Position numbers and translations under genes: made by a program. Source: Promethearchaeota archaeon Loki_b32 (GTDB taxonomy: Archaea; Asgardarchaeota; Lokiarchaeia; Sigyniarchaeales; SOKP01). Taken from it: a stretch of 64,000 nucleotides of DNA. Below the pieces are notes generated by a model. The model saw nothing but the letters and a program-made list of their open reading frames with translations, was not told the DNA's origin and did no database searches. Positions within the stretch are counted from its first letter, which is position 1. Each line of letters opens with the position of its first letter. Location of the stretch: positions 128,001-192,000 of the forward strand of contig NJBH01000001.1 in the NCBI GenBank assembly GCA_005223125.1, written 5' to 3'. This document shows positions 8,940 through 56,782 of the stretch, piece after piece.

Positions 8940-10472
8940 CTAAGTTCCAGCAATTCTTTTAGGATATTTTGTTTGAGCTTTTAAGTTTTCTCGTAACATT
9001 TTATTTACAAGGTCAAATCTTTTATCTCTAAAATTTCGATCATACCAAAGATTATTTACTTCAAGTGGATCGTTTTTGCGGTCATAAATATCACCAAAAT
9101 TATCTAAAGTATCATAAACTGTTAATTTAAAATCTTCTGTAACAAGATGTCTTATTCTAGCTTCGAGAGTGCCTACTTCCTCATCATTCTCTATTAATAC
9201 ACTATCTCTTACCTTCTGCTTAGGATTCATTAAAATAGGAGAAATATCATAACCTTGCATATCTGGAGGGTGGTGTCTTTCTTTAATATCTAGAAGATTT
9301 AGAATTGTTTTAGGGTAATCAATTGAACTCACTAAAGAGTCAGATATTTCTCCCAGTTTTGTTAATTGAGGTACTTTCCATATCAATGGTAATTGTAAAA
9401 CACCATTAAAAGGACATGGACCCTTAAATAGAAGCCCATGGTCACCCATTAAATCTCCATGATCACTCATAAAGATAACAATTGTATTCTTTGAATATCC
9501 CGATTTTTCCAATGAAGCTAAAATTTGACCTATATTATAATCGACATATGCTATTGCCGCGTAAGTTAATGCTGTTATCTTGCGCACTTCTTCTTCTGTG
9601 GATTCACGGAGGAAGGCTTTTTTAAAAGGTGGATTTTTTAAATGATAGCCCAAATACTCATGATTATACAAATTCTTTATATCATTAAAGTTAGCTGGAA
9701 GCTCAATATCTTCTGGTTTATATTGATCTCGATATTTTGTAGGTGGATATAATGGATAATGTGGATCGGGAAATGAACAATGTAAATAAAAGGGTTTATT
9801 CCCATAATTTCCATTTGAATATCTTTCAAGGAATGCTAAAGTTCTCTCAGCAACCCAAGTGGTGTTGTAAAAATCATCTGGTATTGGATCACAAAAAAGG
9901 CTAAATAGATTATCATAGTTCTTAACTCTTTGCTTCATATCTTCAGCAATTTCAGGAACTCTTTCTTCTAACCATTCTGTATAATGTCCCGCACACACGG
10001 TTCCATTTCCAGATATCACTTCAACTTCGTTATAGCCATAATAAGGTGACGGAAAATTATTTCTTACTGGATAACTATTATTTCTACTAAGAGACCAATC
10101 AGTCAAACTTTCTGCCGATCTACTCTTATGTTTAAATGGACCCAACCAGTATTGATGGTGTATTTTCCCCAAGGCCGCCGTATGCCATCCTCGTTTCCTA
10201 AGAGTTTGAATGATTGTAGGAATATCCTGTCGTAAATTTATTCCATTACTTCTAACACCATGAACATTGGGATAGACTCCTGTAATTAACGTTGCTCTAT
10301 TTGGCATACAGATTGGATTAGTACAAAAATGATTTGTAAATCTGAGGCCCTCTTTAGCTAATCTATCAAGGTTAGGAGTTTTTACTGTTTGATTCCCTGC
10401 GCAATTCATATGATCCGCGCGCATTGCATCAGTTATAATGAATAAGACATTTAATTTTTCACTCATAGCCAT
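8940..10472 (-). CDS. Formylglycine-type sulfatase
   Basis: NVLFIITD, CMPNRATLITG (CxPxR), GKIH, DPHYP, SDHGD motifs. Confidence 0.9.
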   Translation of the reverse strand: MAMSEKLNVLFIITDAMRADHMNCAGNQTVKTPNLDRLAKEGLRFTNHFCTNPICMPNRATLITGVYPNVHGVRSNGINLRQDIPTIIQTLRKRGWHTAALGKIHHQYWLGPFKHKSRSAESLTDWSLSRNNSYPVRNNFPSPYYGYNEVEVISGNGTVCAGHYTEWLEERVPEIAEDMKQRVKNYDNLFSLFCDPIPDDFYNTTWVAERTLAFLERYSNGNYGNKPFYLHCSFPDPHYPLYPPTKYRDQYKPEDIELPANFNDIKNLYNHEYLGYHLKNPPFKKAFLRESTEEEVRKITALTYAAIAYVDYNIGQILASLEKSGYSKNTIVIFMSDHGDLMGDHGLLFKGPCPFNGVLQLPLIWKVPQLTKLGEISDSLVSSIDYPKTILNLLDIKERHHPPDMQGYDISPILMNPKQKVRDSVLIENDEEVGTLEARIRHLVTEDFKLTVYDTLDNFGDIYDRKNDPLEVNNLWYDRNFRDKRFDLVNKMLRENLKAQTKYPKRIAGT

Positions 10473-14355: not shown

Positions 14356-15030
14356 ATGAACTTTGAAGAAAAGAGAAAGCGACTGGTTGAAAGCCTCAAA
14401 GATAGAGGAATTTTAACGAAACCAGAAGTAATCAAAGCAATGTTAATCGTACCAAGACATAAATTCGTACTAAAAGATGCTGAATCAAGCGCTTATATGG
14501 ATTCACCCCTTTCGATTGGACTAGGACAAACCATTAGTGCCCCTCATATGAATGCTATGATGTGTGAGTATCTGGAATTGTCGGAGGGGGATAAAGTTTT
14601 AGAAATTGGAACTGGTTCAGGATATCATGCCGCATTATGTGCCGAATTAGTTGCGCCAGAAAATTCGGAAAATCCTGGTCATGTAATCACAATAGAACGT
14701 CATGAAGAATTAGTAAAAAATGCAAGAGAGAGTCTAAAGGAAACCGGATATGAACACAAGGTTACAGTTATCCATGGAGATGGTACATTAGGATATCCAA
14801 AAGAAGCTCCTTTTGATAAAATTCTAGTTACAGCAGCGTCACCTTCAAAAATTCCTGTTCCATTGCGAGACCAGTTAAAAGAGGGAGGAATTCTTTGTAT
14901 TCCAACAGGATCTAAAAGTTTTGCTCAAAATTTATATGTAATAAGAAAACAGGGAGAAAATTTTGATACTAAGAAAATAACAGGGGTGAGATTTGTTCCG
15001 TTAATAGGTCGTTGGGGCTTTGATGAATAA
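14356..15030 (+). CDS. pcm: Protein-L-isoaspartate O-methyltransferase
   Basis: VPRHKFV, GQTISAPHM, VLEIGTGSGY, GDGTLG, APFDKILVTAA, VRFVPL. Confidence 0.95.
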   Translation: MNFEEKRKRLVESLKDRGILTKPEVIKAMLIVPRHKFVLKDAESSAYMDSPLSIGLGQTISAPHMNAMMCEYLELSEGDKVLEIGTGSGYHAALCAELVAPENSENPGHVITIERHEELVKNARESLKETGYEHKVTVIHGDGTLGYPKEAPFDKILVTAASPSKIPVPLRDQLKEGGILCIPTGSKSFAQNLYVIRKQGENFDTKKITGVRFVPLIGRWGFDE

Positions 15031-15080
15031 GTAAATTAATTTAATATAATTCTAATATAAATAATTCTGTAAAAATCTTA

Positions 15081-16976
15081 TTATATTTTCTCAAGGTTTT
15101 GATAAGTTTTCCAAGGCATACCTACATTTTTATTATACTTGATAAGAATTTCATTTAACCTAAGAAGTAGCAATTCTGGCTTGTAAAGCCACGCTTTGAA
15201 GTGGTTAAAACTAATACATCTTATTCTTTTAATGTCAAAATTTTGTTTAAATAAAAGCCCATAAAAACATATCTGAGGTAATGAATGAAAGAACCTCCGC
15301 TTTAATGTTCCCCTACTTGTCAATACACTTGGTTTATAATCTGCTATTACTATGTTATTTTTCCATAATAATAAAATATCTGGGTGCCCAGTTAGATATA
15401 ATTTTTTACTAATTGGTTTCCATATAGGAATCTCAATTCCAGCACAATTCTTGTAATTTTGAACTATTTTAATCGTGATGGATTCATGAGTAGGTAATAA
15501 ACTGTATGCAGATAAATCATTGTTTTTATAAAGATTTGGTTGAGCATAAATCATCAAATCGTATAATATCTTGTAGATCTCTTCATTTTCCTTTAATTTT
15601 TTTTTATGGCAAGATTTATAGAATACTTCTTTTATTAAACCAAGAGCTTTCAACTTTCTTACAATTTGTTCCCTATCTTTATATTTAATTCCCTTTATTC
15701 TAAACTTCGAAATTCTAGGTTGTATATCATAATTTTTAAAAACTTTCTGTGAAGGTCCCACAGTCGTGATTTTTGTCAAATAAGAAGTTAATTTAGGAAA
15801 TTTAATTAATAGTTTTAAACAATTCTTTGAAAGGATAGGATCTGGGTGTTGGCTTATTGGGTGTACTACTTTATATCTTTTTAAGCGTCGATATTCGTCA
15901 ATTGCATCTAAACCTATTTCTAAATTTGCTTCCGATAAGTTTTGTACAACTGCTTCTTCCATCTTATCCACAGTCGCTTTAGAAAATACAGATTTTCTGG
16001 CAAATGATGTATACAAAAAATCTTTGCTTAATAATATCAATCTGCTTAATTTGCTATAATTAATATATTCATTAAACTCATTAGAAAATGCAGATTGTAA
16101 AATTTCAATTAATTCTATCTCTGGCTGATTTGGAGCAATTTCCTCTATTTTAAATCCTTTTAAAATGTTATACTCCTCTAAGGAATCTAGACTTCTCTCT
16201 TGATTAATACCTGATAGGTTTTTTTCAATAAATTCTTTTATTTTATTAATAGAATATCGAGTAAACTTTCCTTTTCTTTCTAAAGCTTTATTAATGAAAC
16301 GTCTACTGGTAATCATTTCACTTAAACTAGCAATTGAAATTGGCTTTTTTAACTCATTTGACAGTGTTTCTTGTAAAATCATAACTAAATCAATTTCTGC
16401 TTGATTTAGAGCTCTAGAGTTAAGTTTATAACCTTTAATAATTCTATAATCGTTTATCGCATTCAGAGCTCTTTTTTGGTCATCTCCGGTTAATTTTTCT
16501 TTACTTGCCTCTTCCATTTTATCAGTTGTAAATTTTTTAAAAGTATATTCTTTTCTTAACGCTTTAGATATAGTATCTTTACTTGATATCATCCTCGATA
16601 AATTAGAGAGGGGAATAAACTCTCCTAAATTGTTTGAAAATATTTCATGTAAGCTTTCAATTAAATCTATTTCTGCTTGGTTAGGGGCATCTCCTTTTGT
16701 TTTGTAACCTTTAACAATTTTATATTCGTTAATAGCAATCAAAGCTTTCTTTAAATTATTATTTGATAAGTTTTCCCTAAGCACCTTTTCAATTTTATCA
16801 ATAGTAAATTTACTAAAAGCTTGTTTTTCTCTTAAACATCTAGTAATCAAATCTTTGCTTGCTATTATTTCAGATAACAAAGAAAGAGATATTTCTCTTC
16901 CCATTTCGTTTGAAAAACCTTTTTGTAAGACTTCTATTAAATATGATTCTGGGGGGATTGTTTGCTTAAATTTCAT
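15081..16976 (-). CDS. Four tandem ~92-aa helical repeats fused to a C-terminal PD-(D/E)XK nuclease domain
   Basis: Repeats begin TIPPESYLIE / PNQAEIDLIE / LNQAEIDLVM / PNQPEIELIE and end EYKIVKGY / DYRIIKGY / EYNILKGF / EYRRLKRY; C-terminal IEIPIW..TGHPDILL..IADYKP..PQICFYG. Confidence 0.75.
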   Translation of the reverse strand: MKFKQTIPPESYLIEVLQKGFSNEMGREISLSLLSEIIASKDLITRCLREKQAFSKFTIDKIEKVLRENLSNNNLKKALIAINEYKIVKGYKTKGDAPNQAEIDLIESLHEIFSNNLGEFIPLSNLSRMISSKDTISKALRKEYTFKKFTTDKMEEASKEKLTGDDQKRALNAINDYRIIKGYKLNSRALNQAEIDLVMILQETLSNELKKPISIASLSEMITSRRFINKALERKGKFTRYSINKIKEFIEKNLSGINQERSLDSLEEYNILKGFKIEEIAPNQPEIELIEILQSAFSNEFNEYINYSKLSRLILLSKDFLYTSFARKSVFSKATVDKMEEAVVQNLSEANLEIGLDAIDEYRRLKRYKVVHPISQHPDPILSKNCLKLLIKFPKLTSYLTKITTVGPSQKVFKNYDIQPRISKFRIKGIKYKDREQIVRKLKALGLIKEVFYKSCHKKKLKENEEIYKILYDLMIYAQPNLYKNNDLSAYSLLPTHESITIKIVQNYKNCAGIEIPIWKPISKKLYLTGHPDILLLWKNNIVIADYKPSVLTSRGTLKRRFFHSLPQICFYGLLFKQNFDIKRIRCISFNHFKAWLYKPELLLLRLNEILIKYNKNVGMPWKTYQNLEKI

Positions 16977-17211
16977 TTCCTTTATTAGGTAGGTGAAGAA
17001 TTCATAATAATATAAATAGAATGTGAGCTCTAGTTTTTCTATCTATTATTTTTTAACAAATTAAAAATAATAAAATCTCAGAACATATCATGAATGCAAA
17101 TCTGTAATAAGTTTTTATTTAACATATAAAAAGAAACTAGTTTCTATATTTATCTATAATTGGAAAGTATGGTTTTGAATCCTAGAATTATAAATTGATT
17201 TATAGTTTGAT

Positions 17212-17352
17212 TTAACTGTACTTTCCCTTCTTATATTTATCTTTTAGCCTTTTTCTGATCATTCTTACATAATCCGATCTATCAATGCACGCTTGAAGAT
17301 TTTCATCACAGCAATTCCAACTACGACATTCCGTATTATTAGAATTTCTCAT
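17212..17352 (-). CDS. 46-aa basic microprotein B (MRNSNNTECRSWNCCDENLQACIDRSDYVRMIRKRLKDKYKKGKYS)
   Basis: Manual translation ATG 17352 to TAA 17212; ungapped similarity to 17521-17664. Confidence 0.55.
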   Translation of the reverse strand: MRNSNNTECRSWNCCDENLQACIDRSDYVRMIRKRLKDKYKKGKYS

Positions 17353-17520
17353 AATAAATCTTGTATTAATCATACATCTAATTAGGATTCAATAATTAAA
17401 AGAGAAAATGAATATAAGAAAGTAAGGGTTATGACTATAAAATGAATTAGATAATTTCTTTAAATTCTATAATGATAGAAAGAAAAAGAATTATAATACC
17501 TGAGTTCTAACACTAAATAT

Positions 17521-17664
17521 CTATTTTTGAAATTTTTTTTTTAGTTTTTCTTCTAATAACTTTTTTCGAACGGTTTTGACGTGATTATTCTTTTCAATAT
17601 TATGTTTCAATGATTTCTTATTGTAAGTCCAGCCATTCCGTTTACCATTTCCGTTTACTCCCAT
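17521..17664 (-). CDS. 47-aa basic microprotein A (MGVNGNGKRNGWTYNKKSLKHNIEKNNHVKTVRKKLLEEKLKKKFQK)
   Basis: Manual translation ATG 17664 to TAG 17521; TATA-like TTTATATATA about 55-65 nt upstream; paralog of 17212-17352. Confidence 0.55.
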   Translation of the reverse strand: MGVNGNGKRNGWTYNKKSLKHNIEKNNHVKTVRKKLLEEKLKKKFQK

Positions 17665-17795
17665 AAGTGTCAAAACCAATGCAAATTTTATGTTTTATAG
17701 TTGTTATTAGACCCTTTATATATATAAAACTAATTAAAATCGACAAAATTCTTACGTGCTTCTACAGATTTGTAAGAAATACAAAGGTTTATATA

Positions 17796-20061: not shown

Positions 20062-21792
20062 TTGAGTTTTATGATAAATTATTTTGATAAAAATGTGATT
20101 CAAGGAATCTCTAATTCCAACGAGTTTAAAGGATGGCTTCTCTCAAGAAGATGGTTCGGGGATAAATCAGCTTTGTCAAATTTGGAGTTTGATGTCATTC
20201 TTCAGTATTTTGAAATAATTGCTGAGAGAATTTTTCTCACAATAATTGAAGTCAAAACCTCTGATTACTCAAAAACTTATTTTCTTCCATTAATTTATTA
20301 CAGAAAAATTGAAGCAATTCTAGACTCCAGCGAAAAAACACATTCCAATATTGTAAATTTAACTGAAAATACATTCAGTAAAAAGCTAGCTATAACTATC
20401 GAAAATGAACAAAAAGTCATAACACTTAATTTACTGGAAGCTGAGTTTTGTCTTTTTTTCTGGAAAAAATTACTTTTTGATACGAGCATCTCAGAAAAAT
20501 ATCCCTCTCTGGAAATGGAATTATCACTCTATAACAAACAATTTGAAGATGAGGTTAATATGAGAAAAGTACAAAACTTAATAGAAGCAGGATTATACCC
20601 AGATCGATATGAACTTTCCATAAATCAATTGGGAAAAGGAAATACTACCAACATCTTGTTTTCGCTAAATATTTCGAATAAAAGAGTACCAGACCATAAA
20701 CCAATTTCTTATGTATTAAAATCTTATAAGGATTATTCTACAAGTATAGAACCCTCCATGTTATATGTTTTAGTTAAAAATAAATTTCCCAACACTCCGA
20801 AAATTTACGGAACAATTAAAGTACGTGATAAAGAAACTATTGGGATAATTGAGAGTGTTCCAAATATAGGAAATTTAGGTGATATTTATTGGAACGACCT
20901 TAATAATATGATAGATTCTGTATTTAAAGATATTAATAAAGATTACTCAAGATTTAGTGAAAAATCTAATATATCTCAATTAATTAAAGAGAACTGCATA
21001 AAAACAATTTCAGTTTCCTCCGAGATTGGGACATATATCAAGAAATTACATGAATCTTTAATTCTACCCGATCAAAAACAGTATAGTCTAGAATCAGTTG
21101 AAAGTAATGCATATCTCAAAAATTATACAGATGGATTGAATTCGATGATTTCAGATTTGTTAAGTCACATGACTAATCAACCAGAGAGTGCTTTTTTCAA
21201 CTTACCTAAAATAAGTTCAATCTTAGTAGATATTAAAGATGTTATTGAGAGGTTTCGTGCAGATTTTGAGAAACCAATTATTAATATTCAACCTGTTCAT
21301 CAAGATTTACATATGGAGCAAATTCTATATAATAAAATTGATGATCAATACAATTTTTATTTTATAGATTTTGAAGGTGACCCTCAACTTTCTTTAGAGG
21401 AGAAAAAAGGCAAATTTCCTATTGAAAAGGATTTAGCCTCATTTTTAAGGGCTCTTAGTTATATAAAATTCAACACATTACTTAGGTTTATTGATAAAAA
21501 CATTATTAATAAAGAGAAGTATGAAGTACCTGAAGAAATTCTTTACAATCTATTTTTTAGAAGGGCGGCTAGACCATTAAACAAAGTTTTAGATATCCTT
21601 CTCGATATTATTAACACATGGGAGTCTAAATTAATTGGAAAAATACTAAAAAATCTTAACGCAGATAATATCCTGATTACATATTTCTATATCGAAAGAG
21701 CACTTCATGAATTAAATTATGAAATTTTATTTCGACCGAATATGATCATCATTCCCATATTGGGGTTAAAAGAGATCATTGAAAAAAGTTGA
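20062..21792 (+). CDS. Maltokinase-like (Mak/Pep2) phosphotransferase
   Basis: N-terminal WLLSRRWFGDK, catalytic HQDLHMEQIL, IDFEGDP, KDLASFLRAL, ERALHELNYE..RP. Confidence 0.8.
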   Translation: MSFMINYFDKNVIQGISNSNEFKGWLLSRRWFGDKSALSNLEFDVILQYFEIIAERIFLTIIEVKTSDYSKTYFLPLIYYRKIEAILDSSEKTHSNIVNLTENTFSKKLAITIENEQKVITLNLLEAEFCLFFWKKLLFDTSISEKYPSLEMELSLYNKQFEDEVNMRKVQNLIEAGLYPDRYELSINQLGKGNTTNILFSLNISNKRVPDHKPISYVLKSYKDYSTSIEPSMLYVLVKNKFPNTPKIYGTIKVRDKETIGIIESVPNIGNLGDIYWNDLNNMIDSVFKDINKDYSRFSEKSNISQLIKENCIKTISVSSEIGTYIKKLHESLILPDQKQYSLESVESNAYLKNYTDGLNSMISDLLSHMTNQPESAFFNLPKISSILVDIKDVIERFRADFEKPIINIQPVHQDLHMEQILYNKIDDQYNFYFIDFEGDPQLSLEEKKGKFPIEKDLASFLRALSYIKFNTLLRFIDKNIINKEKYEVPEEILYNLFFRRAARPLNKVLDILLDIINTWESKLIGKILKNLNADNILITYFYIERALHELNYEILFRPNMIIIPILGLKEIIEKS

Positions 21793-56173: not shown

Positions 56174-56782
56174 TTGATGAACCAGATAAACGACAAACAA
56201 ATATCTCTTGATGATATCGAAGTACCAGAAAAAATTCCTACAAAATTCATAAATAACCGAGTGATTGTTTTTAACTCACTTTTTGCGTCTTATTTATATG
56301 TTAAAGGTATCAATGGACAACGTTTTTTTGGTTCCCCATTAGGGATTAGTAAGCCGCGATTGGAGTATTTCTCAAAACCATCAGAACTATCGTTAATTGA
56401 AGCATATTATTTATTACAAAGAGAAGCTATAACAATTTTTCACGTAAAAGAAAACAAATATTTAATATCTGAAGAATTCTATGAGATTGCAAAAAAAAAT
56501 CATCATAAGTTTAAAGAAAAATACATTATCTACAAAGATTTAAGAGATAGAGGATATATTCCTAGGCCTGGACTAAAGTTCGGAGCCGATTTTGTGATTT
56601 ATCGTCTTGGTCCAGGGCTTGAGCATTCTCTTTTTATGGTTCATGTTTTACCACATGATGCTGAAATTACTGCGATTGATATGGTCAGAGCTGGTCGTTT
56701 AGCAACCTCAGTGAGAAAAAAATTTGTAATTGCCAATCCTCTTACGTGCAGTTATTACTTTTTTGAGTGGTTCAAACCTTGA
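56174..56782 (+). CDS. endA: tRNA-splicing (intron) endonuclease
   Basis: LSLIEAYYL, YKDLRDRGY, GLKFGADFVIY, HS, RLATSVRKK (Tyr-His-Lys triad). Confidence 0.9.
   Translation: MMNQINDKQISLDDIEVPEKIPTKFINNRVIVFNSLFASYLYVKGINGQRFFGSPLGISKPRLEYFSKPSELSLIEAYYLLQREAITIFHVKENKYLISEEFYEIAKKNHHKFKEKYIIYKDLRDRGYIPRPGLKFGADFVIYRLGPGLEHSLFMVHVLPHDAEITAIDMVRAGRLATSVRKKFVIANPLTCSYYFFEWFKP

Follow-up and report, generated by a model that had tools for sequence, protein, structure and literature searches.

A candidate homing-type endonuclease with a tandem helix-turn-helix-like array at the 3' end of pcm in a Loki-type Asgard archaeon

Why does the genome of one Asgard archaeon carry, at the very end of a housekeeping gene, a gene for a repeat-bearing nuclease that its close relatives lack? 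The gene lies on the minus strand at 15081-16976 of a 64,000-nucleotide (nt) stretch of Promethearchaeota archaeon Loki_b32 (contig NJBH01000001.1, positions 128,001-192,000; assembly GCA_005223125.1; GTDB lineage Archaea; Asgardarchaeota; Lokiarchaeia; Sigyniarchaeales; SOKP01), hereafter the window, and encodes 631 amino acids (aa) plus the stop. The genome is referred to as G000 and the repeat-nuclease protein, whose residue numbering is used throughout, as P0001. An earlier note on this DNA had described four tandem ~92-aa helix-turn-helix (HTH)-like repeats followed by a PD-(D/E)XK nuclease, and had proposed a defence, homing or selfish enzyme. Comparative genomics favoured the homing or selfish part of that proposal. 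The account towards which we lean, with somewhat better than even confidence, is that the gene encodes a site-specific endonuclease of the homing type, free-standing and borne by a single-gene cassette of 2155 nt (15001-17155). Its architecture, and the fact that it has been inserted where a housekeeping gene ends, suggest a new kind of homing endonuclease.

The genes around the insertion are housekeeping genes, encoding an FMN reductase, a U32 peptidase, the protein methyltransferase PCMT (pcm) and a GH57 glucanotransferase. When the locus was compared with eight genomes of the same genus, the order U32-pcm-micro-ORF B-micro-ORF A-GH57-ORF576-RHH (ORF, open reading frame; RHH, ribbon-helix-helix) was found to be kept in all eight, at 65-91% protein identity, and the repeat-nuclease gene was missing from every one of them. 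In the closest relative (contig L074) the pcm stop is separated from micro-ORF B by ~60 nt, and homology between the window and this contig ends at about 14996 and restarts at about 17251. The pcm gene of the window finishes with the codons TTA ATA GGT CGT TGG GGC TTT GAT GAA TAA (LIGRWGFDE*, 15001-15030, plus strand), a substitute 3' end borne by the cassette. A non-coding relic of the ancestral pcm 3' end, ATA ATT GGA AAG TAT GGT TTT GAA TCC TAG (IIGKYGFES*, 17156-17185, plus strand), stands 2155 nt downstream of the live end, at the far edge of the insertion. A 23-nt pattern drawn from the ends of nuclease-free alleles matched the relic at 21 of 23 positions (17159-17181, 2 mismatches), and the substitute end and the relic are identical at 16 of 30 positions when counted codon by codon. 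The presence of these two ends indicated that the gene had come on a cassette of 2155 nt (15001-17155), placed ten codons, stop included, before the end of pcm. As read from the sequence, the cassette holds one gene and replaces the last pcm codons, with the original end left behind as a relic.

The substitute end is not peculiar to the window. All nuclease-bearing pcm alleles end in [ILV]GR[WY]GFxE*, and all 12 distinct nuclease-free alleles end in IGK[YF]GF[ED]S*. Apart from its occupied-type end, the window pcm shares 91% identity with a nuclease-free allele. It is therefore a mosaic, as would be expected if the cassette had arrived horizontally together with a short tract of co-converted sequence. 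The part of the cassette upstream of the gene (16977-17155, read on the minus strand), showed no homology to the empty-site genomes and presumably contains the promoter and leader of the cassette gene. Further upstream of the nuclease gene are the two micro-ORFs (17212-17373 and 17521-17679, minus strand). Their products are conserved in the nuclease-free genomes of the genus (63-80% for micro-ORF B and 65-79% for micro-ORF A), indicating that they are probably real small genes, independent of the cassette.

The substitute end and the relic flank the single-gene insertion as imperfect direct repeats of ~30 nt and resemble attL/attR. Such an arrangement could also be the mark of a minimal transposon or integrative element whose PD-(D/E)XK protein would serve as its recombinase or transposase, much as TnsA or Rpn/YhgA do. 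We consider this very unlikely. The cassette ends lack convincing terminal inverted repeats, many chance pairs being found in such AT-rich DNA, and the flanking copies, with only 16/30 identical positions, do not make a target-site duplication. Moreover, the gene is present in a single copy in the genome, and Pfam and NCBIfam scans detected no integrase or transposase family. A profile search of the genome contigs for related loci with alignment A1 returned nothing. Rfam and tRNA scans of the window were likewise empty, so that the insertion is not linked to a tRNA.

The same arrangement was found on metagenome contigs carrying homologs of the repeat-nuclease protein that are 61% (L084) and 44% (L085) identical. 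On both, the nuclease gene is convergent to a pcm gene with 75% identity, and on L085 micro-ORF B lies on its other side. Besides a near-identical copy of the gene (99%) on the independent metagenome contig L082, five homologs 44-60% identical to the repeat-nuclease protein were recovered. Thus, as in homing genes, presence and absence alternate at a fixed site with conserved flanks, the same site is occupied in divergent lineages, flanking sequence is co-transferred with the gene, and the target is altered in occupied alleles.

Patchy distribution of a single-copy gene could also stem from turnover of defence genes, the protein then being a stand-alone defence nuclease (restriction of type IIS or IV, or abortive infection) whose HTH array recognises foreign or modified DNA for degradation by the PD-(D/E)XK domain. 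The architecture would suit such a role, as it parallels the multi-HTH recognition and PD-(D/E)XK cleavage of FokI, and relatives of the protein weakly match Cas4 and Cas4-like nucleases in PADLOC. The repeat-nuclease protein itself, however, matched nothing in PADLOC or PHROGs, and among the ten flanking genes scanned, which are of housekeeping character, there was no DNA methyltransferase (PCMT modifies proteins), cas or other defence gene. Turnover of defence genes also fails to explain why one site is reused by homologs 44-61% identical, or why a substitute pcm end accompanies the gene. We therefore judge a defence function unlikely.

A second insertion of comparable form was found at another site. 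In the same-genus genome G204, a 786-aa member of the nuclease family (L167:9262-11619) constitutes a ~2.6-kb single-gene insertion, convergent to and directly 3' of a conserved rubredoxin-like gene, for which G000 provides the empty site (contig C44, ~56305-56331). The rubredoxin-like gene beside this insertion (L167, ~8995-9050) contains a 24-nt insert flanked by GGCGTA direct repeats, which gives the protein a new C-terminus (…VVMIGSPIMA*), the old one (…KDMFEKIEG*) now being out of frame. Possibly, this insert is the trace of a repair event close to a target of the nuclease.

Is the protein equipped to cut DNA? Its C-terminal half consists of a conserved middle region (aa 370-495, 15492-15869, minus strand), with the motif R..S.F[RK]I.G, and a nuclease core (aa 496-631, 15084-15491, minus strand). 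In an alignment of the module from 23 family members (A2), the middle region was common to the repeat-nuclease protein and to stand-alone ~245-aa paralogs. Across the same alignment, H497, E515, T529-G530, D533, D546-Y-K548-P549, P567-Q568 and Y572 were invariant. Catalytic motifs II and III, TGHPD...ADYKP, fall at aa 529-549 (15330-15392, minus strand), and the QxxxY motif, PQICFY, at aa 567-572 (15261-15278, minus strand). This invariant pattern corresponds, at the level of sequence, to the D...(D/E)xK...QxxxY signature of the RecB/Cas4 branch of the PD-(D/E)XK superfamily, the class to which the earlier note had assigned the domain. The repeat-nuclease protein scored 15.4-17.1 bits against Pfam PDDEXK_1 (PF12705), below the gathering cut-off of 22 bits. 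Weak matches to the same family were obtained for 17 of the 23 module members, and two relatives exceeded the cut-off, namely the genome's own stand-alone paralog (22.2 bits) and P0027 (25.9 bits). NCBIfam gave no match for the protein, and searches of PDB sequences with full-length and C-terminal profiles gave nothing meaningful.

Structure prediction agreed with this assignment. The AlphaFold2 model of the full protein (predicted local distance difference test, pLDDT, 70.9) contains a mixed sheet at aa 511-598, and VIA-align matched aa ~410-625 to the nuclease domain of DinG (9kqh, Z 8.1) and to the Cas4 protein SSO0001 (4ic1, Z 7.6), followed by MGME1, type I-C Cas4, RecE, AdnAB and ACE1 at Z 4.6-6.4; by PDB entry, 8xa9, 8d3l and 3h4r were matched at Z 6.4, 5.9 and 5.7, respectively. 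Model and fold matches together thus display an alpha/beta restriction-endonuclease-like fold. Cas4 proper was considered and ruled out, as the sequence lacks the four-cysteine Fe-S cluster and no cas genes are found nearby.

The distribution of the module was then relevant to its origin. An exhaustive profile search (E <= 1e-3) yielded 262 representative proteins, most of which matched only profile positions ~370-616, corresponding to the C-terminal module. The organisms are Promethearchaeota/Promethearchaeia (Loki-type Asgard) metagenome-assembled genomes. In a survey of 301 genomes of the phylum, a stand-alone form of the module, ~245 aa long, was near-universal in three families (64/68 genomes in f1, 7/7 in f2 and 64/76 in f9), with the same neighbours kept within f1; one such paralog occurs in the genome of the window, at L002:1387-2115. 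Other proteins join the module to many different N-termini. In a quick maximum-likelihood tree the stand-alone forms fell mostly in one half, the other half being a radiation of fusions with varied N-termini, and the clade holding the repeat-nuclease protein had 98% support. The stand-alone PD-(D/E)XK paralog of 243 aa at L086:6633-7364 (contig C61 of G000) represents a gene near-universal in Promethearchaeia, and its conserved neighbours encode a 91-aa membrane protein and two proteins of 799 and 768 aa without Pfam matches. Contig L134 (DATKTW010000128.1), titled 'Candidatus Nanopelagicaceae bacterium', carries an Asgard stand-alone nuclease at 60% identity and is probably mis-binned.

Descent from a family with a near-universal stand-alone form, whose conserved synteny suggests a cellular role, would be compatible with a host DNA-repair or regulatory factor, that is, a stand-alone nuclease paralog tethered by HTH repeats to chromosomal sites, gained once and lost repeatedly. 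But the full four-repeat fusion was found in G000 alone among the 301 genomes of the phylum surveyed, and the relic of the ancestral pcm end denotes a recent insertion, in line with the mosaic pcm. A host function of this kind is, in our estimate, quite unlikely.

How the protein might find a site depends on its N-terminal part. Self-comparison with a BLOSUM matrix gave a sharp peak at a lag of 92 residues (32% identity), with echoes at 184 and 277, and pairwise BLASTP of the units related repeat 1 to repeat 3 (E 4e-20) and repeat 2 to repeat 4 (E 2e-22). The four tandem repeats reported in the earlier note were thereby recovered, with boundaries now placed at aa 6-369 and the minus strand specified: repeat 1 spans aa 6-92 (16701-16961), repeat 2 aa 98-184 (16425-16685), repeat 3 aa 190-276 (16149-16409) and repeat 4 aa 282-369 (15870-16133), all on the minus strand. 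The repeat strings quoted there (KDLITRCL, KDTISKAL, RRFINKAL and KDFLYTSF) and the nuclease motif LTGHPD...IADYKPS...LPQICFYG are all present in the protein. No long repeat was seen in the DNA itself. Orthologous repeats are more alike (48% identity) than paralogous ones (37%), which indicates that the array is old and does not result from recent duplication. Neither Pfam, NCBIfam nor PDB sequences yielded a match to the repeat beyond sub-threshold Pfam similarities, in keeping with the earlier remark that it belonged to no named family.

The structure of single units, a check that had been proposed with the original observation, was modelled for repeat 2 on an alignment (A4) of 21 repeat units, which came from this gene and further genomes. 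The model (pLDDT 94.7, predicted template modelling score 0.85) comprises five helices, at unit positions 3-20, 26-33, 38-43, 51-64 and 67-84. In each unit the HTH side (H2, the turn, H3 and the following loop) is basic, with an acidic first helix (H1); the isoelectric point of the whole protein is 9.6. An hhalign comparison of the repeat profile with seven HTH_3 domains of the same genome scored 18.3 (P 0.005), in the H2-turn-H3-H4 register expected for an HTH. This score exceeded those of all 150 column-shuffled controls (mean 8.4, standard deviation 1.5, maximum 15.7) and that of a reversed control (9.5), and a further control with an unrelated repeat family gave P 0.17. Sub-threshold Pfam matches of single units were to HTH_3, HTH_26, HTH_10, HTH_24 and Mga (E 0.005-0.06). 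Among the weak fold matches, proteins of the XRE/lambda-repressor type recurred: Stl (7p4a, Z 6.8), CapH-N (7t5u) and 3eus (Z 5.6), P22 c2 (Z 5.3), SinR (Z 5.0) and lambda repressor (in a Foldseek row), and, in the search with the full model, HigA (9chn, Z 5.0) and GraA (6fix, Z 4.8). These XRE-type matches (Z 5-6.8) were interspersed with unrelated helical bundles; annexin, pentatricopeptide repeat and bromodomain rows from Foldseek were set aside as generic helical matches, and the ESM Atlas, queried with one repeat, had no usable match. The five-helix model and the weak but reproducible XRE-type similarity are in keeping with the HTH-like character first ascribed to the repeat, which is probably a derived XRE-like HTH and a putative DNA-binding unit. 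Positions that are repeat-specific yet conserved among orthologs cluster in two stretches, the turn with the beginning of H3 and the H3-H4 loop with the beginning of H4. A reading of the array in the manner of transcription activator-like effectors (TALE), with short repeats and hypervariable di-residues, was ruled out, as each unit measures 92 aa and its sequence is conserved between orthologs.

The survey of repeat number and partner domains, also suggested at the outset, located the repeat in 11 of the 121 genomes of the order, all of family f1. The number of units per array varies from one to five, and some arrays are joined to the nuclease whereas others are not. P0033 (802 aa) combines three HTH-like repeats with an N-terminal DUF4379 treble-clef zinc finger/CapR-homology region, and the array therefore also associates with modules other than the nuclease. 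Conversely, in P0027, P0042 and P0018 the nuclease module is joined to a second tandem repeat, of ~87-91 aa (W.FLDW..G.PR.Y.EAV.NAA..L...I.T..FK), which hhalign related neither to the first type nor to HTH_3 (P 0.12 and 0.17).

The homing reading thus draws on several lines of evidence: a single-gene cassette, reuse of the site by divergent homologs, empty sites in close relatives, a linked and altered target-gene end that travels with the gene, and strictly conserved catalytic residues. In the mechanism that we propose, the four tandem XRE-like HTH repeats would each read a short subsite and jointly define a long target at the empty pcm end, near which the C-terminal RecB/Cas4-like domain would cut. 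Repair of the cut empty allele from an occupied template would then copy the cassette into the pcm end, its own last pcm codons would keep pcm intact, and the replaced end would probably also change the target, so that the occupied allele would remain uncut. DNA binding, the cleavage site and self-mobilisation are what we infer from these features. Several points weigh against this scheme. The usual substrates of RecB/Cas4-type nucleases are DNA ends or single strands, and site-specific double-strand cuts are not what they typically make. The two homologous crossovers of classical homing would leave no target relic, and the presence of one here means that the right-hand junction in this lineage did not arise from a simple homologous crossover; furthermore, the lineage with the 44%-identical homolog lacks the relic. 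The HTH assignment is sub-threshold: the best VIA-align score of the repeat was Z 7.7, in a range (Z 5-7.7) that is noise for helical bundles, and Foldseek searches of the PDB with the single repeat and the full model gave nothing at the significance threshold of E <= 0.001. For other lineages, long vertical inheritance at the pcm site with many losses retains some probability. Nevertheless, the three other explanations discussed above are weaker than homing.

Homing or selfish endonucleases are a known kind of element, and the gene resembles some of them closely. Free-standing homing endonucleases of T4-like phages (Seg, Mob) and enzymes of the I-TevI type have modular DNA-binding domains (PMC2790892, PMC2988022). 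As with these, a single nuclease gene lies between or at the ends of conserved genes and is present or absent among close relatives, the nuclease is joined to an extended, modular HTH-containing DNA-binding part (here predicted), and flanking sequence travels along. In contrast to those GIY-YIG or HNH enzymes of phage genomes, the present nuclease is a RecB/Cas4-like PD-(D/E)XK protein of an Asgard archaeal chromosome, its four tandem 92-aa repeats belong to an unnamed family, and its cassette restores the end of the gene into which it has inserted. I-Ssp6803I, the product of a group I intron, is a small tetramer that resembles restriction enzymes; the repeat-nuclease protein shares its PD-(D/E)XK catalytic class but differs in being free-standing and in having the QxxxY (RecB/Cas4) signature and a repeat array. 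Six catalytic classes are recognised among homing endonucleases, and PD-(D/E)XK is one of them (PMC6083498, PMC3384342).

Other known systems share individual parts. With Cas4 and RecB-family nucleases (PDDEXK_1) the protein has in common the fold and the D...(D/E)xK...QxxxY motifs; unlike Cas4, it has neither the four-cysteine cluster nor a CRISPR context, and it falls below the Pfam cut-off. Type IIS enzymes such as FokI recognise their site through several HTH-type subdomains, behind which comes a distinct PD-(D/E)XK cleavage domain. The order of a (predicted) HTH-type recognition part and a PD-(D/E)XK domain is the same here, whereas the methyltransferase partner is missing from the vicinity, the cleavage domain belongs to the RecB/Cas4 branch and the recognition part consists of homologous tandem repeats. 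The repeats, as modelled and aligned, resemble XRE/lambda-repressor HTH domains (HTH_3) in their five-helix topology and in the H2-turn-H3-H4 register, but are longer (87-92 aa), have long first and last helices linking the units, form tandem arrays of up to five and show similarity below family thresholds.

One further feature of the locus is ORF576 (20062-21792, plus strand), whose 576-aa product has no Pfam match and is 78-85% identical across the genus.

Four aspects are new: the joining of a tandem 92-aa HTH-like array to a RecB/Cas4-type nuclease, a repeat family that has no name, the location in an Asgard chromosome and the rebuilding of the target gene end. Known homing endonucleases come from phages, organelles, introns and inteins; to our knowledge, free-standing ones in archaeal, and particularly Asgard, chromosomes are essentially undescribed, and we know of none that unites a RecB/Cas4-type PD-(D/E)XK domain with a tandem HTH-like array. 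The literature on Asgard mobile elements that we consulted held no description of this gene family. A broader and more tentative proposal, which we put forward as possible though rather doubtful, is that the gene is the founding example of a new family of homing endonucleases of Asgard (Promethearchaeia) chromosomes, in which a RecB/Cas4-type module would be retargeted by swapping ~90-aa DNA-reading repeat arrays of at least two unrelated types, each repeat reading its own subsite, and would insert at housekeeping 3' ends while rebuilding them. In that case the specificity of the repeats would be modular and could be re-engineered. As both empty and occupied alleles are in hand, the homing hypothesis can be tested directly by a simple cleavage assay. 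If it is true, the repertoire of homing endonucleases would gain a new architecture, the repeats would represent a new, unnamed DNA-binding family whose units, each of separate identity, are candidates for modular recognition of long sites, and selfish single-gene cassettes would be shaping Asgard genomes at the ends of housekeeping genes.

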